DNA of 64,000 nt from a virus (IMGVR_UViG_3300027509_000001:1-64000); one strand, 5' to 3'; shown: positions 26,595-60,509, counted from the stretch's first letter. Notes: generated by a model from the sequence alone, not told the origin. Numbers and translations: made by a program.

Positions 26595-26707
26595 ATCTCT
26601 ATTAAGTTTTCGTTCAAAAGTAAGTTAATAATTAATTCCGGATTTAACGGCTGCTTTACGGGATAAGTACTTAATTAATACCTTGCCTCCTGAATTACAC
26701 GATATCT

Positions 26708-27526
26708 TTACTTAAGGCCCTTGATCACCGACGTTCCGCTGCCAAATACATTATTTTCTCCAAACGGTGAATTTCCATGCTTTAAGAAACCATCCCACAT
26801 TTTATCTTGGATCTCTATTTCCTTCAATTTTAACATGGCAGGCTGTGATAATATTGCCTTTGTCTTAGCAGTATTTTGAGCTGTCTGCAATGCATAATCA
26901 GATTCTGCTAATAACGCCTTTCCAATATTTTCTTTTTCCAGTTTCATTTTTTCAGACAAATTGTTCTTTTCATCCTGAACTTTTGCTGCTATGATTTGTT
27001 GGCTAATCTTGTCTGGTAAATCAACGTCTAGGATCTGAACACGAGTAACATTTACAAACAACGTACTCATGTCTTCCTTTAATCCAGCTAATAGACTACT
27101 TTCAGCTTCTGGTCGTTTTGTTCTATTAAGCTCCAATGCTTGATGTTTTGCTGCTTCAGTTCGAACTGCTGCTTGAAATAGTGGTCCCATTTTGGATTCT
27201 CTATAATCTGGACCCACACCAGTATGAAGTTTGTTTACTGACAATGGCATTGGTTGATAATACATTGTAACTTTCAATTCAGTATCTAATCCATCGTAAT
27301 CTAAGTATTCTCCGGAAATCGTCATGGCTTGCTCTCTTACGTCGTATTCAATAAGGTCTGCACCAAACCACAATGCCGCAGCGAACGCCATTCCTTCGTC
27401 ATATACCTTAGACATGTCTGTTTTTCCTCCCCAATCTACATAAACGCCTTTATGACCAGAGTCTACTCCTTGGCAAGATGTTAATAACGCAACTATAAAT
27501 AATATAAAAATATTCTTGAATTTCAT
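26708..27526 (-). CDS. lipoprotein, possible SPFH/band-7-like
   Basis: Lipobox 'ALLTSCQG'; coiled-coil region rich in A/Q/K. Confidence 0.4.
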   Translation of the reverse strand: MKFKNIFILFIVALLTSCQGVDSGHKGVYVDWGGKTDMSKVYDEGMAFAAALWFGADLIEYDVREQAMTISGEYLDYDGLDTELKVTMYYQPMPLSVNKLHTGVGPDYRESKMGPLFQAAVRTEAAKHQALELNRTKRPEAESSLLAGLKEDMSTLFVNVTRVQILDVDLPDKISQQIIAAKVQDEKNNLSEKMKLEKENIGKALLAESDYALQTAQNTAKTKAILSQPAMLKLKEIEIQDKMWDGFLKHGNSPFGENNVFGSGTSVIKGLK

Positions 27527-27545
27527 TTTTTAAATTTATAAATGT

Positions 27546-27665
27546 CTAGACAAAATTGTCAAAATTGTTTCTTTTGTTTCTTCTATCGCTAACAATCCAT
27601 CTCCAGATTGCTATGGCCGTAAATAATAATACGGCGATTGGTACAAATACTATTAATTTTCCCAT
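27546..27665 (-). CDS. small single-pass membrane protein (39 aa)
   Basis: MGKLIVFVPIAVLLFTAIAIWRWIVSDRRNK..; below the ORF-track size cut-off. Confidence 0.3.
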   Translation of the reverse strand: MGKLIVFVPIAVLLFTAIAIWRWIVSDRRNKRNNFDNFV

Positions 27666-27667
27666 GT

Positions 27668-27805
27668 TTAAAATTTTTGTAATAAAGTTAATAATAAAAT
27701 GGCACATAACAAAATTAAAAGCCATTTATTTTGATTAGGATTTGGTTTAAATGGATTAGGTAAAAATATTGGACTGAATAACTTCTTTCTTTTTAATGTT
27801 AACAT
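27668..27805 (-). CDS. small membrane protein (45 aa)
   Basis: MLTLKRKKLF...WLLILLCAILLLTLLQKF; possible holin-like. Confidence 0.3.
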   Translation of the reverse strand: MLTLKRKKLFSPIFLPNPFKPNPNQNKWLLILLCAILLLTLLQKF

Positions 27806-28236
27806 TAATATATTGGTTTAAAATAAGCCCTTTCAGAATATATCGCTGAAACTACTGACCAAACTTTCCTTGCTATTTCCGAAGAAGTTTTTTCAAATAA
27901 ATCTTCTGGTATATTACTTGCTACCGCGATTGCCAATTGATCTTTTAATTGCATAGTATAATTTGCAGTATCAATTTCTAATAGATGCTCTTCTGATTTT
28001 AATAGTGATGAAGCGTCCTTTTCTATGACATTCGAATTCTTTGTAGTTTCCAATTCCTCCAATAAAGAATGATCTCTATTAAAATCAGATAATGCCATTC
28101 TTTCTTTATGCCCAGAATCTACGTATTCATAATGAATACTAGTAGCAGTTATTTCTAACACCTTCAATTTAGCAATCGAGTTACTGAGCATTTTATGCTG
28201 TTTTACTATATAACTGAAATTTTCTTTAGCTTCCAT
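27805..28236 (-). CDS. hypothetical protein
   Basis: 143-aa ORF. Confidence 0.45.
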   Translation of the reverse strand: MEAKENFSYIVKQHKMLSNSIAKLKVLEITATSIHYEYVDSGHKERMALSDFNRDHSLLEELETTKNSNVIEKDASSLLKSEEHLLEIDTANYTMQLKDQLAIAVASNIPEDLFEKTSSEIARKVWSVVSAIYSERAYFKPIY

Positions 28237-28242
28237 TTTATT

Positions 28243-28848
28243 TTATTTAGCAAATAACAAAGTTGGTGAATTTTTATGAACCGTTGTAGAAAATTGTAAC
28301 CGAAAATTCTGTAAATTAAATGGTTCTGAAATAATATGATATCCATTTTTTGTATAATAATGCCCTAAGATAGAATAATTGTTTGACATTGATTTATGCT
28401 CATAATTTATACAATCTATATGTTCAGCTATTAATTCTTCTTCAGTGCCATATGAATTTTCATCAAAATCAATGTCTACTACCCATCTTTTTACCTCTTG
28501 ATCATTATAACTTCCAACTGTTTTCTGAAATAATACTGGCAGAGAATTATACTGATTGTTAATTAATAATTCTGTTAATTTCTTCATACACCTTAATCCC
28601 ATTTTATCCATTCTCCTCTTATTCAGATTGATATATATTCTAGCATTATGGTCCGAAGCATAAGCAATCCACCTTTCAATATTATCTAATAAATATTGCC
28701 TTGAAGATATATATTTCTCCTTTAATATTGAAGCAGATTTTTTGTTTCCATCCTTTCTCCTTTGAATGATCTGCAAAATATAAAAATCATAAGCGGATGT
28801 AAATTCTAATAATCGAATAATATTTTCAGTGTTATTAATTTCATTCAT
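28243..28848 (-). CDS. hypothetical protein
   Basis: 201-aa ORF. Confidence 0.45.
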   Translation of the reverse strand: MNEINNTENIIRLLEFTSAYDFYILQIIQRRKDGNKKSASILKEKYISSRQYLLDNIERWIAYASDHNARIYINLNKRRMDKMGLRCMKKLTELLINNQYNSLPVLFQKTVGSYNDQEVKRWVVDIDFDENSYGTEEELIAEHIDCINYEHKSMSNNYSILGHYYTKNGYHIISEPFNLQNFRLQFSTTVHKNSPTLLFAK

Positions 28849-29375
28849 AATCCGTAATATTGATGCTTTCCTGTTGTTCCATAATATTCTGCTTTCTTTA
28901 CTAGTCTACGAATCCATCCTGATCCTATTTTACTTGCTAAGGCTTCATTGTGATAGAATAATACATTTGCTGGCAGTTTTGAGCCATTAAGCAATAAATC
29001 CATAGCTACATCTCTGCAATCTTGATCTAATTTACCATAGTTTGGATCTTTCCTTATAACGTATTCAAACATTTTACTTTTAATTCCTGCAAATTGCCGC
29101 TTCTGATATACGACTCCCCACATAGTAGAAGGATAATTAGGATGTGCCATTCGATTTAAAATTACCGATCCTACCCACTGTTTATCTTTAAACGATTCGC
29201 CAATTGATTCTGCACGAATGATCTTGGATAATAAAATTATTTCTTCAGGATCTAATTTACAGTATTCATTTAGGTTTTCATTGCAACATTCAATAGGTGA
29301 CACTTTGGCGTCAATTGATAATGACCAAGTGACTGCAAATAAGACACATGCAAAAGTTAATATTTTAATTTTCAT
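28845..29375 (-). CDS. SleB-like cell-wall hydrolase (Hydrolase_2 family), secreted
   Basis: Signal peptide; 'IIRAESIGE...WVGSVILNRMAHPNYPSTMWGVVYQKRQF'. Confidence 0.6.
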   Translation of the reverse strand: MKIKILTFACVLFAVTWSLSIDAKVSPIECCNENLNEYCKLDPEEIILLSKIIRAESIGESFKDKQWVGSVILNRMAHPNYPSTMWGVVYQKRQFAGIKSKMFEYVIRKDPNYGKLDQDCRDVAMDLLLNGSKLPANVLFYHNEALASKIGSGWIRRLVKKAEYYGTTGKHQYYGL

Positions 29376-29664
29376 AAGTAAGATTTATAAATTCAATTAA
29401 ATCATTCTCTTCTGGGTCCCAGTCTGTCTGCCCATCGATTAATATTTCTCCATGGTCTTCATCTCCAACTGTTATCGTATTATCTTCTATTTCTGCACCA
29501 ATCATGTCTGCTATATCTGTGTAACTAGCTCCATGCTCTTTGTATTCAGTTTGCCCTTCTTCCAGATAAATAACCTTTCCATCTTCATAAAATGCATCTA
29601 TAATATTCATATCTTTATTTTTAATTACATTTATAAAGATATATAAAATATTTATAATATCCAA
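29365..29664 (-). CDS. acidic hypothetical protein
   Basis: 99 aa, D/E-rich. Confidence 0.4.
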   Translation of the reverse strand: MDIINILYIFINVIKNKDMNIIDAFYEDGKVIYLEEGQTEYKEHGASYTDIADMIGAEIEDNTITVGDEDHGEILIDGQTDWDPEENDLIEFINLTYEN

Positions 29665-29667
29665 ATT

Positions 29668-30243
29668 TTAACTAGATATAATTTTAGAAACATTGGAAAT
29701 GAATTCATTTAAAGTTCCATTATTCTTAATAAGAAATTGCCATACTTCTGGAACAACATCGTCTAATGCAGTTTCAGACGAATGATTATCTATTGGTATG
29801 TTATCTCTTTCAATTCTAATTTTGACGACTTCGTACTTGTCTGAAGATAAATAATTGTCAATAAGAAGTTCATTAGGAAATCTACAATCGGTTATTATAA
29901 TATTATTAGCGGTTGATTCTTCTATTTTTCTTACTGCAATTTTAACCCATGCATCTAAATCTATAGTATTTCTAATGCCCTCTGTTCCTAATATTTGTAA
30001 TATGTCTCTGAGCATTAATGGAGATAGATCGTGTCCAAATTTAGTTGGTAACAATTTCTGCGCTTGTGTATAGTCACCATTGACCATTTTAATACCAGTC
30101 AGAATTTCTGCCATTTGCTTTAGTGCGCCGGCAAACATTATGGTTTCTGTTTGACCTCTAAGATGTTGCTTTAAGCTATTAGCCAGAGTGTCTTTACCTG
30201 TTCCTTTTTTACCTGATATTATAAATACTTTAATTTTTTGCAT
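29668..30243 (-). CDS. dNMP kinase-like P-loop kinase (T4 gp1-like)
   Basis: N-terminal 'VFIISGKKGTGKDTLANSL'. Confidence 0.5.
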   Translation of the reverse strand: MQKIKVFIISGKKGTGKDTLANSLKQHLRGQTETIMFAGALKQMAEILTGIKMVNGDYTQAQKLLPTKFGHDLSPLMLRDILQILGTEGIRNTIDLDAWVKIAVRKIEESTANNIIITDCRFPNELLIDNYLSSDKYEVVKIRIERDNIPIDNHSSETALDDVVPEVWQFLIKNNGTLNEFISNVSKIISS

Positions 30244-30721
30244 TCCATTTATTTTTTAGTTCTGTAATATCGTGTATGTCCCATTCAGTAGGAGATTGTT
30301 TTAAATAGGGCGGAACAAATTTTATGCATAATACACCCCCTTCATTTAATTCCTTTACTGTTGAAGGTTTATCATCTATATGATGCGTAATACCATAATC
30401 TCTGCATGATTGTAGTTTGTCATATGAAGCAATTATTGGCTTATCGGGAAATCCTTCTTTCCAAAGATTTATTCTTCTAGCCTCAATCATCTTTTCTGGA
30501 ATAGATGTTAAGTAATAGTCAAAGTCAACATTAATGTCTTTAGGGTTGATCAATGCAGGAATTGTTTCCCAAAACTTCACTTCGTCTTTTATATTTTGAT
30601 ACATTTCCCATACTAAAGGATCTTCCCAATCATTAATAATTTTTGGGCATTCTTTTCCATGCCATTCGTAAGCATGTTTGACGAAATTTAAACAAATTCC
30701 GTCTACGTCAAATGATTTCAT
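30230..30721 (-). CDS. HAD-superfamily 5'(3')-deoxyribonucleotidase
   Basis: 'FDVDGICLNF' DxDG[IV] motif at the N-terminus. Confidence 0.55.
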   Translation of the reverse strand: MKSFDVDGICLNFVKHAYEWHGKECPKIINDWEDPLVWEMYQNIKDEVKFWETIPALINPKDINVDFDYYLTSIPEKMIEARRINLWKEGFPDKPIIASYDKLQSCRDYGITHHIDDKPSTVKELNEGGVLCIKFVPPYLKQSPTEWDIHDITELKNKWNAKN

Positions 30722-30736
30722 TTTTAAAATTTTAAA

Positions 30737-31021
30737 TTAAAATTCACCTAGAATTCTCAAAGTCTTTTCGGCATTTAGACTTAGGATGTTACATGTAAAA
30801 TTATTTTCGAAAACTCCGTCATCTCTAATTTTCATTTCGTATCTATTTCCATTTACATCTTTATCGTAGATTTTAAAATCGTTTTTATCGACAATTTTAC
30901 TTGCGATCAAGTCTTGCAAGTGCCGAATGTCTATTTCTTCTGCATAATATACAGTTCCATTAAATTCTACTTCTACCTTATCTAGATATGGAGTATTAAT
31001 TATTTCTCTAATCGAGTTCAT
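30737..31021 (-). CDS. hypothetical protein
   Basis: 94-aa ORF. Confidence 0.4.
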   Translation of the reverse strand: MNSIREIINTPYLDKVEVEFNGTVYYAEEIDIRHLQDLIASKIVDKNDFKIYDKDVNGNRYEMKIRDDGVFENNFTCNILSLNAEKTLRILGEF

Positions 31022-31025
31022 TGAA

Positions 31026-31715
31026 TTATTTTAAGCGATTTCTTAATTTAAGTTGAAGTGTAATCCATTTCTTAGCAATGGGATTTGTAATAGACGATTC
31101 TGCAAACTTTTTAACTTCTTTCCAAAGTTTATCTAGGCCAGAACTGTTATCTCTAGTACTATTATCTATAATTGATATATTAGATCTTCCAAATAGCGAT
31201 TGAAATTTTCCAAGATTTTGCTGGGCATCATACCATGCTTGTTTTACTATATCTTCCGGAAGTGACCTTTCTCGTTTTTGGTTTCTTTCTAATGCCACTT
31301 CCAAAGAAGTATTGACAAATACCATGTAACAATCATAACCTAACTTCTTTAGATCTGCAACATGACTTTTTATTTTCGAATAATTCTTTCCAGTTCCATC
31401 TACTATAAATCCTAATCTTCCATCAATATAAGCATCATGTTGAGCATTAGCTGTTTTTTTAGCCTTTGGCCTTAAGGCCATTATTTTATCTAGCTGATCT
31501 TTGGGGAACTTTAAAGATAAGCCATGTTTTTTAATAAGCCTTTCAAAGGGCACATCTGAAGCAACTACTTTAAATCCATGACCCATTGTTGATTTATTCA
31601 GTACATATGATTTTCCTGACCCAGGTCCTCCAGCCATAAATATGGTTTTAAATATGGCCCTGTCATATACACCTTCCTTTAATATTTCTTCAATTAATAT
31701 ATCATTTAGTTTCAT
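31026..31715 (-). CDS. P-loop NTPase / kinase
   Basis: Walker A 'MAGGPGSGKSYV'. Confidence 0.45.
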   Translation of the reverse strand: MKLNDILIEEILKEGVYDRAIFKTIFMAGGPGSGKSYVLNKSTMGHGFKVVASDVPFERLIKKHGLSLKFPKDQLDKIMALRPKAKKTANAQHDAYIDGRLGFIVDGTGKNYSKIKSHVADLKKLGYDCYMVFVNTSLEVALERNQKRERSLPEDIVKQAWYDAQQNLGKFQSLFGRSNISIIDNSTRDNSSGLDKLWKEVKKFAESSITNPIAKKWITLQLKLRNRLK

Positions 31716-31732
31716 TTTCTTTTCATTTCCTT

Positions 31733-32305
31733 TTATTTATGCAACTTTGATTCTGGTGGTGCTAATAATATTTTTTCATATTCAGTTCCACCAATTTCTC
31801 TAGTATAATGATATCCATCTTTTGATGGTTTTATTTTCTTTCCAATAATTTTTTCTACTTTATGGGCAGGAACGGGTTTCATTCCTTTATGCAGGGCATA
31901 TTTTTCAGCAGCGCCTGAGAATTCGCCCCATGCCCTATTAAATTTAATATCGTCTTTATAAATTTGCTTGGCCCATTGTTTACCTACTGGAGTCATATCA
32001 TGGGCTCCTCCTATTGCTTTTCGACCATGTTTATCTTTATATACTGCGGCTGCAATAATTTTGCCATTCTTTCTTACTAATTTCATAAACCCAGCTTTAG
32101 ATATCATATGATTGGCATTTTTGGCTCCTTTAAATCCACCTAAGTCTTTATACGTTTTTTGGAATAATCCCCAAACTGCGTCTGCATATTTTTTCATTTC
32201 GACTTTAGTATGCAAATTGACAAAGGTTTCATTAATATAATTTTCTCTAAGAATTCTTTCGTATTCTTTATCTGCTGACTCTTTTATATAGTTTACTAAA
32301 CTCAT
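31733..32305 (-). CDS. hypothetical protein
   Basis: 190-aa ORF. Confidence 0.45.
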   Translation of the reverse strand: MSLVNYIKESADKEYERILRENYINETFVNLHTKVEMKKYADAVWGLFQKTYKDLGGFKGAKNANHMISKAGFMKLVRKNGKIIAAAVYKDKHGRKAIGGAHDMTPVGKQWAKQIYKDDIKFNRAWGEFSGAAEKYALHKGMKPVPAHKVEKIIGKKIKPSKDGYHYTREIGGTEYEKILLAPPESKLHK

Positions 32306-32883
32306 TGCGTATATCCTTCGTTAAATAGAACTAAATCCTCTTTAATATTAGCAATTACTTGACTTATGTCACTATGTCGGTGGTTTTGTTCTGTAACGTG
32401 TATCTTTAATGCAAACCCATTGTCAATAATATCTTGAGACCAACTTTCATAATCTAAAACAGTATCTTTGGACCCTACATAAAATGTCAGTCTATCTATA
32501 ATATGGCGGTGCATAATATTGGGCTTAATCATAGACAAATGACTAATAAAATCTCCTGATACATAAGATTCTTCTCCAGTCTTATAATTTTTAATCTTGG
32601 TTCCTATTAAATATGACAAAGTAGTATCTGGACTAAAGGATGGGTTAATTAAATGTACTTTCAAATATGAAAATTCTATAGCTAATATCATGGCATAAAA
32701 ACCTCCTAAAGAAGTACCAACTACATATTCAATATGATTTGATATAATTATATCCCTTAATACCTCTAGATCTTTCTTAGGATCGTTTACTAATTGTGGA
32801 GAATGTACTTTTACCCCCAATTTTCTAAACTCCTTATCCTTGCCTCCTGGCCCAGAGTTAAATCCATGTATATATAATACCAT
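32302..32883 (-). CDS. alpha/beta-hydrolase esterase (YqiA-like)
   Basis: 'VLYIHGFNSGPG' N-terminus and 'GTSLGG' nucleophile elbow. Confidence 0.5.
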   Translation of the reverse strand: MVLYIHGFNSGPGGKDKEFRKLGVKVHSPQLVNDPKKDLEVLRDIIISNHIEYVVGTSLGGFYAMILAIEFSYLKVHLINPSFSPDTTLSYLIGTKIKNYKTGEESYVSGDFISHLSMIKPNIMHRHIIDRLTFYVGSKDTVLDYESWSQDIIDNGFALKIHVTEQNHRHSDISQVIANIKEDLVLFNEGYTQ

Positions 32884-32922
32884 ATTTATTCTTTATAAAC
32901 AAATATACTTAAATTTTTTGAC

Positions 32923-33438
32923 TTATTCAAATATATTAATATATAGTTTTGCATATTCATTATATATACCTGTTACATTTAAACGATCGATCCAATTATT
33001 AAAATATTCTAACAATTCTTTACTTCTTTCGTGATTTCCATAATGGTGTATCATGAAATCTTTCTTATTTTGAATTTTGTCAACTGATAACATGTCATTT
33101 ACGTCTTTTATTGGAGATAGTTTTATCTCATCTATGGATTCTATTTTTCGCTGAGATAAATAAGACATTGCAATATGCCGATATTCCATTGCCAATAATA
33201 TTACTGGAGATTTGCACTTAAGGCTTATACTTTGCCAATTCTTTGCCAACGCGTCGTCTGGTTGCAACATTGGATGAATGCAAAAGGCTCTTCTAGCTAA
33301 ATTTGAGGCGTTTAACAAATCAAAAATTTCCAATGCATCATCTATATGATCCATATACCTGACTTTCGAACGCTTTGCTATTTGGTTTCCATAGTACTCA
33401 TTGATCAATTGATATTCTATTGACTGCTTAATATTCAT
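32923..33438 (-). CDS. hypothetical protein
   Basis: 171-aa ORF. Confidence 0.45.
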   Translation of the reverse strand: MNIKQSIEYQLINEYYGNQIAKRSKVRYMDHIDDALEIFDLLNASNLARRAFCIHPMLQPDDALAKNWQSISLKCKSPVILLAMEYRHIAMSYLSQRKIESIDEIKLSPIKDVNDMLSVDKIQNKKDFMIHHYGNHERSKELLEYFNNWIDRLNVTGIYNEYAKLYINIFE

Positions 33439-34061
33439 CTCATTAAATATTTTATTGGGTCTATGGCAACATTATTGATTCTAACCTCGTAATGCAGATG
33501 TGGTGCGACAGAATGACCAGTACTGCCCAATGTTCCTATAACTTGATTTTTATGCAGTACATCGCCTCTATTCACGTATATAGTGTCTAAATGGGCATAA
33601 AGAGTGGTATGATTATTACCATGATCTATAATTATGTGATTTCCGTATGCATTTTCCAATTCTAACTTAGTAATCACTATGCCGTTTGATACTGCTTTTA
33701 TTTCAGTTCCTTTTGGCGCAACTAAATCAATGCCAGCATGAAGTTTATGAATTCCACTTATTGGATGAACTCTAAATCCATATGGAGACATTTCTGATAT
33801 TGGCTTATTTAATTTGCAAATTTCTATTGGCATTCCATATGGCATGGATAGGGAATCTTTTATAGCTTCTGCAACAATACTGTCTAATAATAATTGAGTT
33901 TGAATTTTAATGTTGGTTATACTATCTTTAAAAGTTATGATATTTGAATTATATTGAGTTTCTTTTAGAATGGAATTCGAGTTTAGATGTTTGAATGCAA
34001 AAATCATACCAATTAATGTTAAGATTAACGTATATATAATATAATTTTTTAGTCCTTCCAT
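33435..34061 (-). CDS. M23-family peptidase, membrane-anchored
   Basis: N-terminal TM segment; 'HAGIDLVAPKGTEIKAVSNG' and 'GSTGHSVAPHLHYEV'. Confidence 0.65.
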   Translation of the reverse strand: MEGLKNYIIYTLILTLIGMIFAFKHLNSNSILKETQYNSNIITFKDSITNIKIQTQLLLDSIVAEAIKDSLSMPYGMPIEICKLNKPISEMSPYGFRVHPISGIHKLHAGIDLVAPKGTEIKAVSNGIVITKLELENAYGNHIIIDHGNNHTTLYAHLDTIYVNRGDVLHKNQVIGTLGSTGHSVAPHLHYEVRINNVAIDPIKYLMR

Positions 34062-34250
34062 TTTTTATTTAAGTAAGATTTTAATCTTTTTTCTTAAATT
34101 GTCGTTATCCTCAAGTAATTCTGCGATTAGGTCTACATCTATGCTATCTGCTCCATACTCATGAAACATTTTATCGTAAGTTTTTATTCTCTTACGTAAC
34201 TTTTTAAGATGTTGCCTGTAATATCTTGTTTCTTTTGTCATATCTTAATT

Positions 34251-34583
34251 TTAACACCGTGGAACACCTTGTTCAGGGTCATACCAACCATGTACTGAAG
34301 AAAGCTTCCAGCCGGGGTACGGACAAGACCCATGTTTACTAACCATAAAATCAAATTTTTTGCCCAATTCTTTCAAACTTGGTTTTGAGTGTATAGCATT
34401 TAATTTATCTTGATGTTCCTTGTTTCCCATGGACGGATCTATGTCATGTACAAATACCAATGATAAATGCTTTTCAATTTGTTGAATTTGGGAGGAAGTT
34501 AGGCTTTTTTCTTGTGGAGGTATATGGTTAAATCCAACTTCAAAAAAGCCTTGGAGCCAATAACAAAAATCTCTAGTTGTCAT
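34251..34583 (-). CDS. hypothetical protein
   Basis: 110-aa ORF. Confidence 0.4.
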   Translation of the reverse strand: MTTRDFCYWLQGFFEVGFNHIPPQEKSLTSSQIQQIEKHLSLVFVHDIDPSMGNKEHQDKLNAIHSKPSLKELGKKFDFMVSKHGSCPYPGWKLSSVHGWYDPEQGVPRC

Positions 34584-34600
34584 ATTATGTATTTTTTAGG

Positions 34601-34677
34601 TAGTGTAGAAGGGGATCGAACCCTCATGTTACCAATTACTCTTTCTACAAGATATAAGCTTGAGGAGATACTACACT
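34601..34677 (-). tRNA. tRNA (isotype unresolved)
   Basis: Perfect 7-bp acceptor stem AGTGTAG/CTACACT; T-arm GAGGG-TTCGATC-CCCTT; 77 nt. Confidence 0.5.
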
Positions 34678-35313
34678 ATTTTTTATAAGTTGAATTTCAT
34701 TCTTTTTCAATATTATTAAATTATTAACAACTTTCCATTTACATCGATCTCTTTCTCTTTCAAATCCCTTAACCTCAATATATTTATCGTAATCAATTAA
34801 ATAAAAATCTGGAAAATATAAATGTATTTTATTATTCCATTCATATTCAAATGGTTTCATTTCATTTGTCCATTTAATATCATGTTCATCTAACCATTTT
34901 GCTACTTCTAATTCCCAATTTCCTTTTAATTTAAATCCATTATAATTAAAAGTTTTAACTCGACCTGACACATTACTACTCGAATAACTTTCAGGGTTAT
35001 TTTTAACGGCAAGTAACATTGCAGTAGAATGCCGTTTTCTTCTTTCAAGTGACCAAGTCTGATTTTTTCCGGCGATCGAGAGTTTTTGTCTAGTTTCCTT
35101 TGAAATTATAGGTTTAGGTAAACCTAATAATTTTGCTTTAGTATATTGATTTTTAAAATTTTTTTTAATTTTTCCAGCTTTTACTTTTTTATTATAATCT
35201 ACGAATGGACTAATTCTGTTGGGCTTGTTATGCCATCCCATATGGGAATTCAGTCCATTTTGTGATTTGTATTCTTTATTACATTTACTACATTTAAACA
35301 TATCTTTTAACAA
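34645..35313 (-). CDS. zinc-finger + PD-(D/E)xK-like endonuclease (homing-endonuclease-like), paralog A
   Basis: N-terminal 'CSKCNKEYKSQNGLNSHMGWH'; C-terminal 'YFPDFYLIDYDKYIEVKG'; the C-terminal ~110 aa are nearly identical to 39096..39746; the 3' end overlaps a tRNA. Confidence 0.55.
   Translation of the reverse strand: MLKDMFKCSKCNKEYKSQNGLNSHMGWHNKPNRISPFVDYNKKVKAGKIKKNFKNQYTKAKLLGLPKPIISKETRQKLSIAGKNQTWSLERRKRHSTAMLLAVKNNPESYSSSNVSGRVKTFNYNGFKLKGNWELEVAKWLDEHDIKWTNEMKPFEYEWNNKIHLYFPDFYLIDYDKYIEVKGFERERDRCKWKVVNNLIILKKNEIQLIKNSVVSPQAYIL
34690..34990. repeat. ~250-300-bp near-identical repeat, copy 1 (3' part of the HEG-like gene)
   Basis: Nucleotides 34700-34925 are almost identical to 39160-39385. 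Confidence 0.7.
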
Positions 35314-35360
35314 TAAATATGTAAAAATTTTAATAAAAGTAACATGTACTTACCAAAAAG

Positions 35361-35437
35361 CGTTCTATGATTGGATTTGAACCAACTATCTTCACTTTGC
35401 AATGTGATGCTTCTGCCTGAATATAGCTCCTTAGAAC
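35361..35437 (-). tRNA. tRNA-like gene (non-canonical anticodon loop in my hand fold)
   Basis: T-arm GTTGG-TTCAAAT-CCAAT; acceptor GTTCTAA/ATAGAAC; the anticodon arm folds as TCAC-ATTGCAAA-GTGA with an 8-nt loop. Confidence 0.4.
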
Positions 35438-35529
35438 GAATGAGTTTTTGCCACAATGGGCGGTCATCAGAACTCTAACTGTGCCGTTATATACGTTGAA
35501 CGGAAGCCGTTAAAGACCCACACTACGAT

Positions 35530-35551
35530 TCGCTGGCCTAGCGACTTTTTT
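35530..35551 (+). terminator. rho-independent terminator-like hairpin on the + strand inside the tRNA array
   Basis: 'TCGCTggcctAGCGA' followed by 'cTTTTTTc'. Confidence 0.4.
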
Positions 35552-35659
35552 CTTAAAAAATAAAGAGCCACGCAAGACTCTCCAGTCTCGAATCCTTTTT
35601 ATTATTTAATGTGAAGATCAAGATAACTTCATTGCAGTATTTTATAGGACTCTTTATTC

Positions 35660-35745
35660 AGTGGGCGAGGTGGGATTCGAACCCCAATGTTTACAAATTT
35701 CTTCTAATTAAATAGTGTCATGAATTTATCTAATTCAAAATCTGC
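35660..35745 (-). ncRNA. tRNA-like fragment or other small RNA
   Basis: 'GGGATTCGAACCCC' T-arm signature, but I could not find a matching 5' acceptor strand. Confidence 0.25.
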
Positions 35746-35819
35746 TCATTGTTTTACAAAACCTTTTGGGCTACGGATTTACGCGTCCGCTTGATTCACC
35801 GATATCAGCACTCCCATTT

Positions 35820-36362
35820 TTATTTTAAACCTAATTCAAATACCATTTTGTATATATTAGCTAGTTTGTCATATATCATATTAAATATATCTGCCAATAA
35901 ATCTTTTATAACCCATAAAGGAATACTGAATGGCCATAAGCTCATCCATCTAATAGAATCTAGTTTTAACGACTTTAACCAACTTTCTTTTGCGTCTTCT
36001 GAGCTGGTGTTATATATATGCTCGTTATTAGTTTTTTTGGCCAGATCCTTATCTCGCTGTAATAACTTTTGGTACTCCTCTTTCTTTTCTCTAGCAGAAA
36101 AATATGCCCTAATAAACGAATATATAATTCCTATAATTGCATATATTAATATATTTTGCCAAGAAAATAAACTAAATACTGATTCAGTATCTTGATGCCA
36201 ATGTACACCCACAAAAATTGCAAAAGCTGCCATAGCTATCGAACCATTTTCTTTCCAATCAGATAATATAAATAAAAATGCAAGGATAGCAAATGATCCC
36301 CAATAATATTTAGAAGAACCAAATAAGCTTCCAATAGTAAAAAAATCAATTAAAGAATTCAT
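35820..36362 (-). CDS. multi-pass membrane protein
   Basis: 180 aa with about 4 TM segments. Confidence 0.45.
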   Translation of the reverse strand: MNSLIDFFTIGSLFGSSKYYWGSFAILAFLFILSDWKENGSIAMAAFAIFVGVHWHQDTESVFSLFSWQNILIYAIIGIIYSFIRAYFSAREKKEEYQKLLQRDKDLAKKTNNEHIYNTSSEDAKESWLKSLKLDSIRWMSLWPFSIPLWVIKDLLADIFNMIYDKLANIYKMVFELGLK

Positions 36363-36382
36363 ACTAAATAATTTTGTTTTAG

Positions 36383-36451
36383 TTTCGCGAACTGGGTTCG
36401 AACCAGCCTGTTCTCAGATATGAGCCGTGAACGTCTCCTAGGACCCGCGAA
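36383..36451 (-). tRNA. tRNA-like gene (short, 69 nt)
   Basis: Acceptor TTCGCGG/TCGCGAA; T-arm GCTGG-TTCGAAC-CCAGT. Confidence 0.35.
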
Positions 36452-36452
36452 A

Positions 36453-36986
36453 TTATTTATTCTCTGTAAAAAATATACCAGGTATGCCATCTATTGTAGC
36501 CTTTCCAATTCGATAACTAGAGGGTAAATTTTTATCTAAGATTAACTTGTATATTTTCATTTTCTGTGAATCAGAAACAAAATCCCTACCTAATTTATCT
36601 CTTGCTCCAAATACAAATACTGGTAATTTTTCATTCCATTTTCTTGCTTGATCTGTTTCTTTTTTTATTACAACTTTGCATATTTCAACGACCGTTTTTA
36701 AAATTCGAATTAAATATTTATAGTTGCTTTTTCGGAATTGATCATCTTTTCCAGAAATATCGAATCCTATATTATATAGATATCCGCGCTCACCAACAAT
36801 CTTAGGCAATTTTACTTTCATTAAAGATCTAGAACTGATTCGAGTAAAGTCTACATTAACTCGGTCGTCCTTATCAGTAGTAAAAGAAGTGTAATGTCCA
36901 TTAACTGAAAATTTATAGGGTTTAACGTTTTTTAGATCGCCTATTTCATTAATAACCGATTCGCTTAATAAATCTCTTAATTTCAT
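36453..36986 (-). CDS. hypothetical protein
   Basis: 177-aa ORF inside the tRNA array. Confidence 0.45.
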   Translation of the reverse strand: MKLRDLLSESVINEIGDLKNVKPYKFSVNGHYTSFTTDKDDRVNVDFTRISSRSLMKVKLPKIVGERGYLYNIGFDISGKDDQFRKSNYKYLIRILKTVVEICKVVIKKETDQARKWNEKLPVFVFGARDKLGRDFVSDSQKMKIYKLILDKNLPSSYRIGKATIDGIPGIFFTENK

Positions 36987-37192
36987 TTTAATGCTTTTAA
37001 ACCATCTAATAGTTTTCTTTTAATTTTTACTGGAATTTCATCAACTTCAATTGTTTCAGGTTTTGGTTCCCAGTCAGTAGTTGTTTTTTGAACGGCTTTC
37101 TTACCAGTACTGCAAAGAACTTTATAGTTGTTATTTGCCAACGTGCCTATAATAACACAATACCCAGCATATTTTTGTTTTAAGTACTTCAT
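36983..37192 (-). CDS. hypothetical protein (start trimmed to MKYLKQKY)
   Basis: The track ORF 36983..37309 runs into a tRNA gene; the internal Met at 37192 avoids the overlap. Confidence 0.35.
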   Translation of the reverse strand: MKYLKQKYAGYCVIIGTLANNNYKVLCSTGKKAVQKTTTDWEPKPETIEVDEIPVKIKRKLLDGLKALK

Positions 37193-37232
37193 ACTGCAAT
37201 ATATATAATTATTTTGACAATAACAAATGTTT

Positions 37233-37307
37233 GCGACCGATGAAGGACTCGAACCTTCTCCTCTCCCTCCATAGGGGAGTAATGCTACACTTATACACCA
37301 CTCGATC
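37233..37307 (-). tRNA. tRNA-like gene
   Basis: T-arm GAAGG-TTCGAGT-CCTTC; clean anticodon arm CTCCC-CTATGGA-GGGAG; 6/7 acceptor pairs. Confidence 0.45.
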
Positions 37308-37532
37308 AATTAAAAACAGTATTTCCTGAAAAACTTAACTCGAATACTTGATTGCAAATATTCCCTCAACTTTACGAGCGACCACAATGTGGAATTAATG
37401 CCCTAGTTCCCTTCGTTGAACATCATATTATTGGTGACCTACTTCCTTCCTTAAAAGGTATTGAAGTACTCATAAATCAAAATTAAGTGAAAAGAGTTTA
37501 CTGTTCGGTTATTCTCTTTCATTTCTTATTCG

Positions 37533-37607
37533 TCGCGTGACGTGGACTCGAACCACGGACCTACCGGTTAAGTGACCGGCCGCTCTAGCCAACTGAGCTA
37601 CCACGCA
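37533..37607 (-). tRNA. tRNA (canonical D-arm; anticodon loop ambiguous)
   Basis: 'TAGCTCAGTTGGCTAGAGC' D-arm, T-arm CGTGG-TTCGAGT-CCACG, acceptor TGCGTGG/TCACGCG. Confidence 0.5.
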
Positions 37608-37688
37608 AAGAAACTTTCATTTCTCTTTTTGATGCTTATCGCGAAATACATTTAAAGAGGTCTGCAAACAAAAAACAAAAGTTTCTAG

Positions 37689-37779
37689 TGGTAAAGATAG
37701 GATTCGAACCTATCGACCTCCCGGATCAAGTACCTAATTAGTACCATAGCCAGTCGCTCTTCCATCTGAGCTATTCACC
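37689..37779 (-). tRNA. long-variable-arm-type tRNA (91 nt; Ser/Leu/Tyr class?)
   Basis: D-arm 'GCTCAGATGGAAGAGC', T-arm ATAGG-TTCGAAT-CCTAT; the length implies a long extra arm or an insertion. Confidence 0.45.
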
Positions 37780-38042
37780 TTATAATTTTTAAAAATTGAA
37801 CAAAATATCATTCCATATCCTTTATCTATCCATCTTTTATACGCTAATGAACCATTAATGTAAACATATAACTCATTGCCAATTTTTTCTTTATGTATCA
37901 TTTTGTTTATTGTTAAAAAGCACCGGTTTATTAAACTCTCGGAGCACTTTCCGTTTATAAAAGTACCGCTTCGATATTAGTTTTAGCTAATAAGAAGATA
38001 GGCGGTGGCCTTCGAAATGCTTATTAATGAAATAAGACTCTT

Positions 38043-38158
38043 ACATACAGGCCGCATTGGTAGGATTCGAACCTACAATAGTACCATACTTTTTCAGCCG
38101 ACGCTTACTTTCCGGATTCGAACCGTATCTCCCTTTCACAGGCGCTTTACCATTTCGC
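38043..38158 (-). tRNA. tRNA-like gene with a ~40-nt internal insertion (116 nt)
   Basis: 3' half CGCATTG..GTAGG-TTCGAAT-CCTAC-CAATGCG with its 5' acceptor partner ~110 nt away; contains a second internal TTCGAATCC box. Confidence 0.3.
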
Positions 38159-38166
38159 TACAATGC

Positions 38167-38267
38167 GATTTTTTGTGCAGACAATTGGATTCGAACCAAT
38201 GACCTCTGGGCTAATTTATAAATCTGGCCAGATTTTTGTTTTTGCCACTTGCGCTCTGCCACTGAGC
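38167..38267 (-). tRNA. tRNA-like gene with an internal insertion (101 nt)
   Basis: Acceptor GCGGACA/TGTCTGC, canonical D-arm 'TAGCTCAGTGGCAGAGC', T-arm ATTGG-TTCGAAT-CCAAT; ~30 extra nt between the D-arm and the T-arm. Confidence 0.4.
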
Positions 38268-38428
38268 TATGTCCGCTAATTTCTAGTATAAGGTTCGCAC
38301 TTATATTGGCTCCCTCAACGGAGCTATTTTCAAACTACAAGGTGTTTTCGTTGCATCTTTTGATAATAGATCTTTGCTATCTACTTAATGCAGTTACTTT
38401 GCCAAGTCTTAGTTAAATTAACTAGAAG

Positions 38429-38500
38429 TGAAATAGGCAGGATTCGAACCTGCAACCCCCCGCAAACAGGGCGCTCTACGCCATTTGGAGCTACTATTTC
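38429..38500 (-). tRNA. tRNA (possibly Ala-TGC-like; fold imperfect)
   Basis: Perfect acceptor GAAATAG/CTATTTC, D-stem GCTC/GAGC, T-arm GCAGG-TTCGAAT-CCTGC, loop region 'TTTGCGG'. Confidence 0.45.
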
Positions 38501-38513
38501 ATGATTTGCAAAA

Positions 38514-38834
38514 TTATACTAATGTTTCTATGTCTTTGACATGATAAATTTTAATTTCTTCTATACTATGAATTCCGCCATATGGTCCTGAGGGAACATA
38601 TTCGTAAAACCAATCTAATTGTTCTCGTGTACATTCTGGATAAATTTCCGATGGTACCTTTTCACTGTTATTATGAGTTGGCCACGTATGAGCATATCCT
38701 GGTTTCTTTTTCAAGGCTGCAATCGCATTGATTACTGGCATAATTAGTGTTAATGTTTTATCATCAATTTCATTCATTTCCGCCACATAATCGGCGTCAT
38801 TATGATCGCCTTTAATCCATATAAATTTCTTCAT
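38514..38834 (-). CDS. hypothetical protein (start trimmed to MKKFIWIKG)
   Basis: The track ORF's N-terminus overlaps a tRNA-like element; the internal Met avoids it. Confidence 0.4.
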   Translation of the reverse strand: MKKFIWIKGDHNDADYVAEMNEIDDKTLTLIMPVINAIAALKKKPGYAHTWPTHNNSEKVPSEIYPECTREQLDWFYEYVPSGPYGGIHSIEEIKIYHVKDIETLV

Positions 38835-38851
38835 GATTTGAATTTTTGTGG

Positions 38852-38930
38852 AAAGAGCAGGATTCGAACCTACAAAGGTCATCGCTAGCAGACGTCTTTA
38901 CGTTATTGCGTCAAACCTACTACCTACCGG
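38852..38930 (-). ncRNA. tRNA-like element (T-arm GTAGG-TTCGAAT-CCTGC; incomplete cloverleaf)
   Basis: Good T-arm and 3' acceptor 'TCTTTCC-A', but no convincing full-length 5' half. Confidence 0.25.
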
Positions 38931-39027
38931 GTTTCATTACGGATGATTCTTTTGCAACTTCCTCATTTTCACTACTAACCAGCGCGTTTACCATTTTCGC
39001 CATCTTTCCTTTTTTATAACGTCTCAG

Positions 39028-39114
39028 TGGCGAGAGTGGGACTCGAACCCACACGTCCTTACGACTCTGGGTTATGAGCCCAGCCAGGCATACCGTCAGC
39101 CTTGTATTCTCGCT
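39028..39114 (-). tRNA. long tRNA-like gene (87 nt) with candidate anticodon CAT
   Basis: T-arm GTGGG-TTCGAGT-CCCAC; anticodon arm CTGGG-CTCATAA-CCCAG; long extra arm; position 1/72 mismatch. Confidence 0.4.
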
Positions 39115-39746
39115 ATTTTAAATTTATTATCTTTAATAAGTTGTATTTCCTTTTTCTTGATTACAACTAAATTATTAACAACTTTCCATTTACATCGATC
39201 TCTTTCTCTTTCAAATCCCTTAACTTCAATGTATTTATCGTAATCAATTAAATAAAAATCTGGAAAATATAAATGCATTTTATTATTCCATTCATATTCA
39301 AATGGTTTCATTTCATTTGTCCATTTAATACCGTGTTTATCTAACCATTTTGCTACTTCTAATTCCCAACGACCTTTTAACTTAGTACCCTTATATTCGT
39401 ACGTTTTTACTCTACCCGACACATTATTTTTGCTATATGAATCTGGGTTATTAGCAACGACTTCTTTCATTTTTATGGAGTGTAACAATCTTTTTTCTTT
39501 AGTCCAAAACTTAGAATTAAATTCCTTACTCCTCTTCCTCATCTTTGCCCTAGATTCTTCAGACCAATATTGTGGTTTCCGTGACTTATATGGACTTTTT
39601 TCTTGCATTATTTTTGAATGCTGTTGCTTTCTTTCTATAGTCCACTTTTTCCGAATTATTCTATTTTCGTTTGATTTACAGAAAGTTTGATGTCCTGTTA
39701 ATTTCTTTTTATTGTCAACTTCTATATTACAGTATTTACATTTCAT
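39096..39746 (-). CDS. zinc-finger + PD-(D/E)xK-like endonuclease (homing-endonuclease-like), paralog B
   Basis: N-terminal 'CKYCNIEVDNKKKLTGHQTFC'; C-terminus nearly identical to 34645..35313; the 3' end overlaps a tRNA-like gene. Confidence 0.55.
   Translation of the reverse strand: MKCKYCNIEVDNKKKLTGHQTFCKSNENRIIRKKWTIERKQQHSKIMQEKSPYKSRKPQYWSEESRAKMRKRSKEFNSKFWTKEKRLLHSIKMKEVVANNPDSYSKNNVSGRVKTYEYKGTKLKGRWELEVAKWLDKHGIKWTNEMKPFEYEWNNKMHLYFPDFYLIDYDKYIEVKGFERERDRCKWKVVNNLVVIKKKEIQLIKDNKFKIARIQG
39150..39450. repeat. near-identical repeat, copy 2
   Basis: Nucleotides 39160-39385 match 34700-34925. Confidence 0.7.
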
Positions 39747-40316: not shown

Positions 40317-40317
40317 T

Positions 40318-40347
40318 TGTTTTTAATTACAATGTAAATATACAAAT
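40318..40347 (-). promoter_or_regulatory. promoter-like motif copy
   Basis: 'ttttaattacaatgtaaatatacaaatata' is nearly identical to 22141-22170. Confidence 0.4.
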
Positions 40348-40560
40348 ATATATTTTAAAATCCAAATGACTGCCTTTAAAAGATTTGAACTTTTAAACTT
40401 CCAACCTATTGTCTCTTTTTCCAACCTATTAATGTTTTCTTCAAAAGATATCGTTGATCGGTGTGCCCACTACACTATGACAATTGGAACGTTGCAACAT
40501 CCCAGCCCCATAAATAACGCTAATTATTTGTCGGGTCTTTCATTCAAGTTTAGAGTTGTG

Positions 40561-40634
40561 TATCCCGCCCCGGGTTCGAACCGAGAATCTTTGCATAGAA
40601 AGTGCAACGGCTTAGCCAGTTTGCCCAGCGGGAC
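40561..40634 (-). tRNA. tRNA-Glu (anticodon TTC)
   Basis: Hand fold: acceptor GTCCCGC/GCGGGAT; anticodon arm TTGCA-CTTTCTA-TGCAA; T-arm CTCGG-TTCGAAC-CCGGG; 74 nt; the 5' end resembles bacterial tRNA-Glu. Confidence 0.55.
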
Positions 40635-40756
40635 ATCATTAATACCATTAACCTTTAGTTACTGGAACTGCTGGTGCAGGTACTAATTTTGTTCTGATGA
40701 ATTTTCGTTTGAACATAATTTTTACTTTTTAAAGTTGTGTTAATGATTTTATTTCG

Positions 40757-40828
40757 CTCCGAGTACAGGGCTCGAACCTGTGACAAAGACTTACAAGGTC
40801 CCCGTTTTCCCATCTAAACTAACCCGGA
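40757..40828 (-). tRNA. tRNA-Thr (anticodon TGT)
   Basis: Acceptor TCCGGGT/ACTCGGA; anticodon arm GGGAC-CTTGTAA-GTCTT; T-arm ACAGG-TTCGAGC-CCTGT; 72 nt. Confidence 0.5.
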
Positions 40829-59137: not shown

Positions 59138-59470
59138 TTAACTGTTAGTCCCATTGTCTTTTATTTTATAGTCATATGATAAATCCTCTTCTTTTATGCT
59201 ACCTGGAATTTCCATGTCATTGTAATTATACATTATTTCAAATAATATTTTTAAATCCCTTTCAGGTTGTTCAAAAAAGTTATGCTGAATTGGTTCAAGT
59301 TTAAAATAATCATTTTCCAATGCATAATAATCTTGAAAATCCATGGCATGTTTGTACTTAAGATGAGTTATTGTTATTTTTTTAAATACTTCTCCGCATA
59401 TTAAACATTCACGATATCGTCTTGAAATATTCGAAAATATATTTTCCTTCATGCTTATCAAATCCATCAT
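59138..59470 (-). CDS. zinc-finger protein (HEG-associated finger only)
   Basis: 'CLICGEVFKKITITHLKYKH'. Confidence 0.4.
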   Translation of the reverse strand: MMDLISMKENIFSNISRRYRECLICGEVFKKITITHLKYKHAMDFQDYYALENDYFKLEPIQHNFFEQPERDLKILFEIMYNYNDMEIPGSIKEEDLSYDYKIKDNGTNS

Positions 59471-60474: not shown

Positions 60475-60509
60475 TTTGAGATATTTCCTGTCGTTGTCAT
60501 AAAAACTAA

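Follow-up and report, generated by a model that had tools for sequence, protein, structure and literature searches.

tRNA-derived genes with remodelled anticodon arms in the tRNA cluster of a T4-like phage

Introduction

A 64,000-nucleotide (nt) stretch of viral DNA, IMGVR_UViG_3300027509_000001:1-64000 (hereafter the window, meaning the whole stretch that was analysed), carries a series of genes that resemble transfer RNAs (tRNAs) in their acceptor and T arms but are aberrant in the anticodon region. A first-pass annotation had named six of them and had offered three explanations: tRNAs carrying a small intron or an insertion, remnants of fused tRNAs, and stable RNAs that are not tRNAs, comparable to RNA C and RNA D of phage T4. 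What are these genes, and are they likely to work? Our analysis shows that they are tRNA-derived genes selected for an intact acceptor/T-arm half, and that several families among them are also selected for specific lower-half sequences. To the wider reading that they encode selected, tRNA-derived and mostly non-decoding RNAs with a remodelled lower half, being neither canonical tRNAs nor tRNAs with removable introns, we give about even weight.

The usual practice is to count and type the tRNA genes of phages with tRNAscan-SE or ARAGORN; to explain them, codon usage or, lately, escape from tRNA-cleaving defences is invoked. Phage tRNAs are reported to counter such defences, and their anticodon loops diverge (PMC10264068). 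The cases of T5 and T6 are treated in PMC13096335, which also describes tRNA cleavage by Septu and endonuclease-driven amplification of a phage tRNA gene, and in which homing endonucleases are reported to associate and recombine with phage tRNA genes. The tRNAs of Lak megaphages contain ‘enigmatic introns’ whose mechanism of removal is unknown, and by the account of that paper introns in phage tRNAs were unreported earlier (PMC6784885). According to PMC11551756, the known cellular tRNAs of bacteria are all canonical cloverleaves; phages go unmentioned in a review of non-canonical tRNAs from 2020 (PMC7609411).

A tRNA gene cluster with few ordinary members

The window has a G+C content of 31.5% and encodes T4-like replication genes (a Dda-like helicase, a DNA ligase and a DNA polymerase). 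The T-box pattern GGTTCRANYCC matches it 15 times, always on the minus strand and always between 34612 and 40778, against a mean of 0.15 matches expected by chance; none of 100 shuffled sequences reached 15. The locus is a tRNA gene cluster of a T4-like phage, with about 14 tRNA-shaped genes, among them only two to four normal tRNAs (scores in bits refer to the Rfam tRNA model, RF00005):

E01, 40756..40828, minus: canonical tRNA-Thr(UGU); ARAGORN; Rfam, 55.4 bits; acceptor stem 7/7 and T stem 5/5 paired
E02, 40560..40634, minus: near-canonical tRNA-Glu(UUC), loop CUUUCUA with a pyrimidine at position 37; ARAGORN; Rfam, 49.8 bits
E03, 39028..39114, minus: 87-nt tRNA(CAU) with a long variable arm; Rfam, 27.9 bits, under the gathering score
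E04, 38849..39009, minus: 161-nt tRNA-like gene, paralog of E07; Rfam, 35.3 bits with an 85-nt skipped block
E05, 38428..38500, minus: 73-nt tRNA-like gene with too short an anticodon loop; ARAGORN ‘tRNA-???’ (tt); Rfam, 43.9 bits with deletions in the loop
E06, 38176..38276, minus: 101-nt tRNA-like gene, founder of a phage family; Rfam, 47.7 bits with a 44-nt skipped block
E07, 38052..38167, minus: tRNA-like gene of 116 nt in which the T-arm box occurs twice; Rfam, 38.1 bits with a 56-nt skipped block; T-boxes
E08, 37689..37779, minus: 91-nt tRNA-like gene; Rfam, 26.3 bits, under the gathering score; fold
E09, 37533..37607, minus: tRNA-like gene of 75 nt, its anticodon loop having 8 (or 6) nt; ARAGORN ‘tRNA-???’ (ct); Rfam, 45.3 bits
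E10, 37233..37307, minus: 75-nt cloverleaf of normal geometry with anticodon AUG and a poor D arm; ARAGORN tRNA-His(atg); Rfam, 33.6 bits
E11, 36383..36451, minus: 69-nt tRNA(CAU) with a reduced D arm; not called by ARAGORN, nor by Rfam at E<=1
E12, 35660..35815, minus: probable remnant (T-box at 35673-35683), weak T stem 3/5 paired, without a matching acceptor strand; geometry; no Rfam tRNA match
E13, 35361..35437, minus: tRNA-Cys(GCA)-like gene with a 1-nt deletion, giving a 4-base-pair (bp) stem and an 8-nt loop; Rfam, 29.7 bits; acceptor stem 6/7 paired
E14, 34601..34677, minus: perfect 7-bp acceptor stem and T arm around a middle that is not tRNA-like; Rfam, 27.5 bits, under the gathering score; geometry

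In the whole 64-kb window ARAGORN returned only five genes, all on the minus strand: tRNA-His(AUG), tRNA-Glu(UUC), tRNA-Thr(UGU) and two ‘tRNA-???’ genes, both typed with 2-base anticodons. The Rfam model gave eight matches above its gathering score (at least 29 bits) and four more slightly under the threshold, E03, E08 and E14 being among the latter and E11 going unmatched. Three of the eight matches above threshold spanned 101, 116 and 161 nt, and there the model skipped blocks of 44, 56 and 85 nt in the anticodon region. For most of the loci, canonical tRNAs were not returned by either program, which rules out that ordinary tRNAs had been overlooked through hand folding. All six genes of the first-pass annotation exist, on the minus strand. 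The lengths that it gave for the 116-nt and 101-nt elements were exact, but their positions, 38043..38158 and 38167..38267, have to be moved by 9 nt to those listed here for E07 and E06, as judged by Rfam and by acceptor/T-arm geometry. It had also understated the range of the oddity, since E04 (161 nt), E05, E08, E11 and E14 are aberrant as well.

The sequence of the cluster is not in doubt. Over 34889-39197 a Logan contig matches the window at 100% identity, and a JGI contig is identical over 26453-39275, where that contig ends within a repeated endonuclease gene while the window continues. Both contigs were assembled independently of the window, so that the odd genes are not assembly errors; chance or an assembly artefact is ruled out by this identity together with the excess of T-boxes.

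The two halves of the cloverleaf differ sharply in their state of preservation. In the 13 well-formed elements all 65 T-stem pairs are intact, as are 87 of the 91 acceptor-stem pairs (E13 being scored 6/7), and a D arm with GG is usually kept. A normal anticodon arm is found in only three to five of the same 13. We count an arm as canonical if its stem has 5 bp and its 7-nt loop has U33 and, at position 37, a purine; such an arm is present in E01, E03 and E10; E02 has U37 and the E11 loop sits on an 8-bp stem, so that a 7-nt loop with U33 occurs in these two with reservations, while E04–E09 and E13 lack the canonical arm altogether. The changes comprise loops of 8, 6 or 4 nt, lengthening into a long hairpin, and interruptions of 18-87 nt.

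The 8-nt loops proposed for E09 and E13 were borne out. In E09 the stem GCCGG/CCGGU encloses the loop UCACUUAA, which ARAGORN reads as a 6-nt loop with a 2-base anticodon; in E13 one base has been lost from the 3′ strand of the anticodon stem, leaving 4 bp. E05 can be drawn either with the stem CCCUG/CGGGG and the 4-nt loop UUUG or with a 4-bp stem and a 6-nt loop. In E08 a 4x4 internal loop joins the 4-bp anticodon stem to a 6-bp helix that is closed by a 5-nt loop, and ARAGORN at a relaxed threshold assigns this gene the 4-base anticodon ‘atgg’. In E04 the acceptor, D and T arms are intact and about 85 nt are added in the anticodon region. The insert of E06 is 28 nt long and contains the hairpin AAAUCU-GGCC-AGAUUU. 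E07 does contain a second T box, as had been noticed, with GGTTCGAATCC present at both 38063-38073 and 38114-38124. Its 5′ part provides a perfect 7-bp acceptor stem, a D arm and a degenerate short anticodon hairpin; in its 3′ part, a 34-nt spacer separates an inner T-arm-like hairpin (UACGG-UUCGAAU-CCGGA) from an outer T arm beside the 3′ acceptor strand.

The ATG and CAT triplets reported at the anticodon position of E10 and E03 are likewise there, in the loops CUAUGGA (AUG) and CUCAUAA (CAU), respectively. The anticodon arm of E03, CUGGG-CUCAUAA-CCCAG, is initiator-like (three G-C pairs). The variable arm of this gene reads GUC..GAC, its D region is unusual, and its 1-72 pair is mismatched (or its acceptor stem has 6 bp). 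E11 combines a 7-bp acceptor stem, a short GGAG-containing linker in place of the D arm, an 8-bp anticodon stem with a conserved A.A mismatch, the loop CUCAUAU, a variable region of 2-4 nt and a T arm. The triplet AUG (A34), otherwise very rare at the anticodon position, recurs in three aberrant elements, namely E08, E10 and a gene at about 3400-3530 of the viral contig L099. The loops UAUGG and UCAUA (E03 and E11 carry CAU loops) are complementary, so loop–loop pairing is conceivable, a purely speculative thought.

Search for removable introns

For the intron explanation, we scanned every single-block deletion that leaves a 5-bp stem, a 7-nt loop and a variable loop, with the intron allowed anywhere in the anticodon arm. 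The variable loop was held to 3-6 nt and then relaxed to 18 nt. The tRNA genes of 116-126 nt in Eneladusvirus, a group of cultured jumbo phages, found by similarity to the viral contig L006, served as positive control. Two of the three gave unique, perfect solutions, tRNA-Glu(UUC) and tRNA-Lys(UUU), upon removal of one 43-49-nt block inserted after position 28, within the 5′ strand of the anticodon stem; the third gave a GUA tRNA. These genes lie at 1056-1171, 1503-1628 and 2706-2830 of L007 (Erwinia phage pEa_SNUABM_47, MT939487) and also occur in L008 (Serratia phage BF). Their removable blocks measure 43-51 nt, a hairpin and the motif U(U/A)AC(A/G)GCA are common to the inserts, and the genes are annotated as tRNA-Phe(aaa), tRNA-Lys or tRNA-Pseudo, or not annotated.

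With a variable loop of 3-6 nt, the scan found no solution for E06 or its relatives, only poor models for E07 (4/5 pairs, no U33), and models with four to five pairs for E04 and E08. The relaxed scan yielded one 5-pair model for E04, 4-pair models for E08 and one 4-pair model, with a 10-nt variable region, for the E06 copy of the window; it yielded none for E07 or for the E06-family members of L003, L006 and L026. The E04 model has the stem GCUGG/CUAGC (5/5), the loop UUAGUAG and an 83-nt insert at the canonical position 37/38. In E08, removal of 18 nt at 37/38 leaves CUAUGGU (anticodon AUG) on a stem with 4/5 pairs. The E06 model reads CAAGU-UUUAUAA-AUUAG, with the anticodon UAU. In the intron mode of ARAGORN the isotype shifted with the flanks supplied, E04 being called either Thr-AGU (83-nt intron) or Tyr-GUA (81-nt intron).

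A search for the bulge–helix–bulge (BHB) motif gave zero to one match per window element, not above shuffle expectation, and none at a junction; in L006 three BHB-like matches were found against 0.87 expected, again none at junctions. Group I introns are about 200 nt or more in length. The inserts are only 18-87 nt long, and Rfam gave no group I match at the gathering score or at E<=1, nor any match to its ribozyme and YrlA models. Neither a splicing endonuclease nor an RNA ligase was matched among the 20 window proteins scanned, the window being part of a genome. A transfer-messenger RNA (tmRNA) can be set aside, since ARAGORN and Rfam found none in the window and reading frames through the inserts of the E06 family are inconsistent between members. 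Taken together, the deletion scan and the BHB, ribozyme and ARAGORN results leave the intron idea unproven for E04 and E08 and disfavour it for E06 and E07. Introns cannot explain E05, E09 and E13.

Conserved families in other phages

A related contig, L003, in which a neighbouring protein is 68% identical, carries orthologs of E03, E06, E09 and E11. The E06 family has four members, in four unrelated phage lineages: the window copy, L003 780-880, L006 502-639 and L026 2857-2954 (identical in L079), the latter two having been found by an exact-pattern scan on the E06 3′ motif. All four share the motif G-C-R-A-G-W-G-G-C-A after the D stem and the motif U-U-A-G-C-C-C-A-G before the variable loop; in E06 the second motif is followed by AGGUC and the T arm. 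The inserts between the motifs are 21, 24, 28 and 63 nt long and unrelated in sequence. The acceptor and T stems differ in all four members and are nevertheless all paired, with three to four pair types per position, and direct reading of the sequences shows one compensatory pair in the insert hairpin between the window and L003. The anticodon arm of this family appears to be replaced by a variable module between the two invariant motifs. The member in L006, a 381-kb viral contig, is solitary between protein genes, and that in the marine contig L026 lies among 16 canonical tRNAs and a tmRNA. Two other interpretations of E06 were rejected: a kink-turn reading of its internal loop, upon hand comparison of the four members, and an alanyl-tRNA synthetase (AlaRS) G3.U70 identity, which only the window copy has. 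L026 (= L079) is phage-like, with an amber-reading tRNA(CUA) and a tmRNA gene (Rfam, 48.3 bits). Its tRNA-Lys(UUU) measures 91 nt through a long insert in the variable region, and a 90-nt tRNA-Asn(GUU) in L085 is alike.

Orthologs of E11 were found at L003 2990-3062, in L004 and at about 209-280 of L085, a jumbo-phage contig (353-kb viral contig). In the three members compared, the acceptor stem, the T stem and the three outer pairs of the anticodon stem covary, and the A.A mismatch is invariant. The E03 ortholog, L003 636-727, shows compensatory changes from U-A to C-G in the anticodon stem and from A-U to G-C in the acceptor stem. The 3′ half of E03 resembles phage class II tRNA-Leu, that of T4 included; a pattern scan of IMG/VR for E03 gave no match. 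The motifs of the E06 and E11 families had no match in 185,579 bacterial and archaeal genomes (one per species), and BLAST of E06, E11 and E03 against 50,697 cultured-phage records returned only generic matches to parts of tRNAs. Our literature search found no description of the E06 and E11 families, and the only Rfam family to match is the generic tRNA model, which matches E06.

E09 offers a direct comparison with an ordinary tRNA. Its ortholog, L003 959-1033, is a canonical tRNA-Ile(GAU) (Rfam, 60.9 bits); between the two, 7 of 18 anticodon-arm positions have changed, against 5 of 57 elsewhere (Fisher p = 0.006), and the anticodon stem has been retained through a compensatory change. E09 corresponds to a canonical tRNA-Ile of which only the anticodon arm has been rewritten. 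The paralogs E04 and E07 have a common D arm, which in IMG/VR defines a family with both insert-free and insert-bearing members. The former are canonical 74-75-nt tRNAs with the anticodon UAG (L094, L098), and from this relationship E04 and E07 can be taken to derive from a phage tRNA(UAG) family, although the boundaries of their inserts cannot be fixed. Among the insert-bearing members, that of L097 is 91 nt long and has a hairpin-extended anticodon arm. In L099 the layout of E07 recurs: the anticodon arm is complete, and beyond it a spacer separates an inner T-arm-like hairpin from an outer T arm. At L094 2198-2272 and at L098 4857-4931 and 5121-5194 lie 74-75-nt ‘tRNA-Leu’ genes (UAG, UAA) whose variable loop is short, in contrast to the long variable arm that is normal for tRNA-Leu of bacteria.

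Sequence comparison thus shows phage-only families that appear to be kept by selection, namely the E06, E11 and E03 families and the E04/E07 lineage. The pattern scans also gave many matches in soil metagenomes (L014, L017, L021, L023, L030-L034 and others), in which the 3′ exon of a tRNA-Met/fMet follows non-tRNA sequence in the form ..CUCAU|AGCCCAGAGGUC.. and then the T arm and CCCCGCUACCA. These are most likely bacterial tRNA-fMet genes interrupted by group I introns.

Proposed function and alternative explanations

The top half of a tRNA is the part recognized by RNase P, the 3′ processing enzymes and the CCA-adding enzyme. We propose that the elements would be co-transcribed with the true tRNAs and small open reading frames (ORFs) of the cluster, excised by the tRNA-processing enzymes of the host, and would accumulate as stable, tRNA-shaped RNAs. 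E03 and E11, with their CAU loops, may still decode, albeit on bodies unlike those of host tRNAs. The other elements would be incapable of normal decoding and could most plausibly act as tRNA mimics, decoys or nuclease-resistant variants, in conflict with tRNA-targeting defences of the host. Turnover of the cluster would probably be promoted by the two homing-endonuclease-like genes that it contains (see below). A role as mimic or decoy fits the documented arms race over tRNAs (PMC10264068, PMC13096335), and the recurrence of odd forms in other large phages suggests that these are probably working RNAs and not junk.

Several observations weigh against selected, mostly non-decoding RNAs. The decoy or anti-defence role is something that we purely infer, and the invariant motifs of the E06 family are unlike a host anticodon stem-loop, which a simple nuclease decoy should resemble. 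The families were found by exact-pattern scans and comprise two to four sequences each; no ortholog was found for E04, E05, E07, E08, E10, E13 and E14, and selection on these individually is unsupported. Folding of the E04 and E07 inserts gave z = 0.02 and +0.8, no improvement on shuffled sequence, and E12 is probably a degenerate, decayed remnant. Across all inserts, z-scores of -0.7 to +0.8 denote no unusual stability, and the idea that the inserts form stable structures was rejected on this ground.

The elements could instead be intron-containing tRNA genes from which 18-87 nt are removed by a protein-dependent cut-and-ligate pathway of phage or host, giving decoding tRNAs. Eneladusvirus makes phage introns plausible, the Lak ‘enigmatic introns’, for which such removal is suspected, are a precedent (PMC6784885), and single-intron models exist for E04, E08 and the window E06. 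The models for E04 and E06, however, require 10-nt variable regions and are, by our estimate, of a quality that chance would provide among the hundreds of combinations; E07 and three of the four members of the E06 family have no such model, the ARAGORN isotype and intron vary with the flanks, neither a BHB at a junction nor a ribozyme was found, and introns would leave the loops of 4, 6 and 8 nt in E05, E09 and E13 unaccounted for. We consider this explanation unlikely. Of the original proposal of tRNAs with small introns or insertions, the part that stands is a tRNA origin with insertions or altered anticodon arms, whereas intron removal fails for E06 and E07.

A different possibility is that the odd elements are decaying pseudogenes or recombination scars, non-functional leftovers of endonuclease-driven breaks, duplications and illegitimate recombination. 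The cluster does hold two paralogous endonuclease-like genes whose 3′ ends overlap tRNA-like 5′ ends, mirroring the microhomology between SegB and a tRNA gene (PMC13096335); E12 is clearly degenerate, E04, E05, E07, E08 and E10 have no counterpart in L003 (E10 is missing from its syntenic place there), the E04 and E07 inserts are unstructured, and the T box of E07 is duplicated. Decay should, however, strike both halves of the cloverleaf, and the combination of intact top halves, aberrant bottom halves and covariation weakens the pseudogene view; in addition, the E03, E06 and E11 families are conserved across distant phages with compensatory changes, and the layout of E07 recurs independently in L099. 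The proposed fusion of tRNA remnants is too simple for E07: its acceptor halves pair 7/7, and the two-T-arm layout is found in an unrelated viral contig. We therefore doubt that decay accounts for the cluster. The top halves might also merely serve as cut signals for RNase P and RNase Z that split a polycistronic early transcript into mRNAs of small ORFs, the lower half being irrelevant, as in mitochondrial tRNA punctuation and plant t-elements. It is true that only the top halves are uniformly intact, that the elements are interleaved with small ORFs and that E14 and E03 abut ORF ends. In the E06 and E11 families, however, the sequence of the lower half does not vary between lineages, and that of the top half is what drifts, which weakens pure punctuation, and the E06 member of L006 is solitary; we regard this as very improbable.

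Large phages may carry at least two undescribed, phage-only families of tRNA-shaped RNAs (E06 and E11), perhaps with dedicated functions in conflicts between phage and host over tRNA; alternatively, the E06 motifs could be the recognition site of a new protein-dependent pathway, of bacterium or phage, for tRNA splicing or editing. We put this forward tentatively, as a possibility that we rate below an even chance. Most members of the cluster are invisible to standard tools or mistyped by them, and yet bear a signature of selection on tRNA-like shape. If expressed, they would widen the repertoire of tRNA-based counter-defence and regulation in phages beyond decoding tRNAs. Phage tRNA counts are underestimates, and calls such as ‘tRNA-Pseudo’ or ‘tRNA-???’ may conceal conserved families. 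The elements are also short, testable sequences for asking whether, and by what, the tRNA inserts of megaphages are spliced. Their importance would rise with proof that the families function, or with the existence of a splicing pathway.

Relation to known systems

The setting resembles the T4 tRNA cluster (rnaC, rnaD, segB), in which minus-strand tRNA genes are interleaved with a free-standing endonuclease gene and small RNA genes. rnaC ends in the consensus T arm CCGGG-UUCGAAU-CCCGG, and in location and T arm the window elements qualify as small RNA genes of a T4-like tRNA cluster with a tRNA-like 3′ end. The comparison with RNA C and RNA D thus holds for the setting but does not extend to sequence: in a blastn-short search of all elements and spacers against the T4 locus, we obtained only T-arm matches to T4 tRNA genes and none that would indicate homology to rnaC or rnaD. 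Moreover, the eight tRNAs of T4 are all canonical (48.8-75.4 bits) and its rnaC and rnaD are unmatched by the Rfam tRNA model, whereas most members of the window cluster are aberrant and still score 26-48 bits as tRNAs.

The nearest published phenomenon is that of the Lak ‘enigmatic introns’. Lak tRNAs are likewise lengthened by inserts, one of which may contain a tRNA-like element (PMC6784885), comparable to E07 and L099. They differ in being typed as ordinary tRNAs once the insert is removed, which fails for E06 and E07, and host, phage family and inserts are unrelated. Phage tRNAs that escape defences (PMC10264068) share with E09 the concentration of change in the anticodon arm on a preserved body, in a large lytic phage with a homing endonuclease adjacent. 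Such tRNAs, however, keep a 7-nt loop and decode, in contrast to the loops of 4, 6 or 8 nt of E05, E09 and E13 and the large inserts of E04, E06 and E07.

Archaeal and eukaryotic pre-tRNAs contain short, protein-spliced introns in or near the anticodon loop, at times at non-canonical positions. Unlike these, the window elements have no BHB, and in E06 and E07 the exons give no canonical arm; no such pathway of splicing endonuclease and ligase is known in bacteria. The tRNA-Other of Bacillus cereus (PMC3399842) and the tRNA-like domain of YrlA are similarly tRNA-shaped, processed as tRNAs and engaged in non-decoding roles, but we found no homology to them and no YrlA match, and the window families are phage-specific. 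Finally, mitochondrial tRNAs that lack the D arm (PMC7609411) are like E11 in their reduced D region, lengthened anticodon stem and normal anticodon loop and T arm. E11 differs in belonging to phages of bacteria, and its 8-bp stem with the A.A mismatch is specific to its family.

Neighbouring genes and noncoding stretches

Two paralogous genes for endonuclease-like proteins lie within the cluster, their 3′ parts being 89-91% identical:

39096..39746, minus: homing-endonuclease-like gene, 216 amino acids (aa); ORF with a weak Phage_endo_I match and endonuclease-annotated homologs in T4-like phages
34645..35313, minus: second endonuclease-like gene, 222 aa, paralog of the former; ORF

The 3′ end of the former overlaps the 5′ end of E03 and that of the latter the 5′ end of E14. 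These overlaps recall the microhomology between SegB and a tRNA gene and the segmental amplification of phage T6 (PMC13096335). Two ORFs in the neighbourhood, of 177 and 106 aa, gave no match in IMG/VR, and a search with a 180-aa neighbouring protein returned only the protein itself. None of the distant homologs of the 177-aa protein, nor of the metallophosphatase homologs, adjoins a tRNA array.

The cluster as a whole is unusually low in coding sequence. A noncoding block of about 225 nt separates E09 from E10 (37308-37532, minus) and is conserved at L003 1860-2100 and at about 1-150 of L004. A long-range helix closes it, and among 39 predicted pairs 8 are retained via double changes; Rfam has no match to this block, which we consider a candidate structured RNA. 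Four more stretches of 150-240 nt without ORFs or T-boxes lie within the cluster, at 40317-40559, 38277-38427, 37902-38051 and 35438-35659 (minus). A scan for promoters and terminators gave nothing over shuffle expectation. Outside the cluster, at 59467-62336 (minus), an ORF for a DNA polymerase (608 aa) is directly followed by one for a homing endonuclease (335 aa), which suggests that the polymerase gene is split, as in some T4-like phages.

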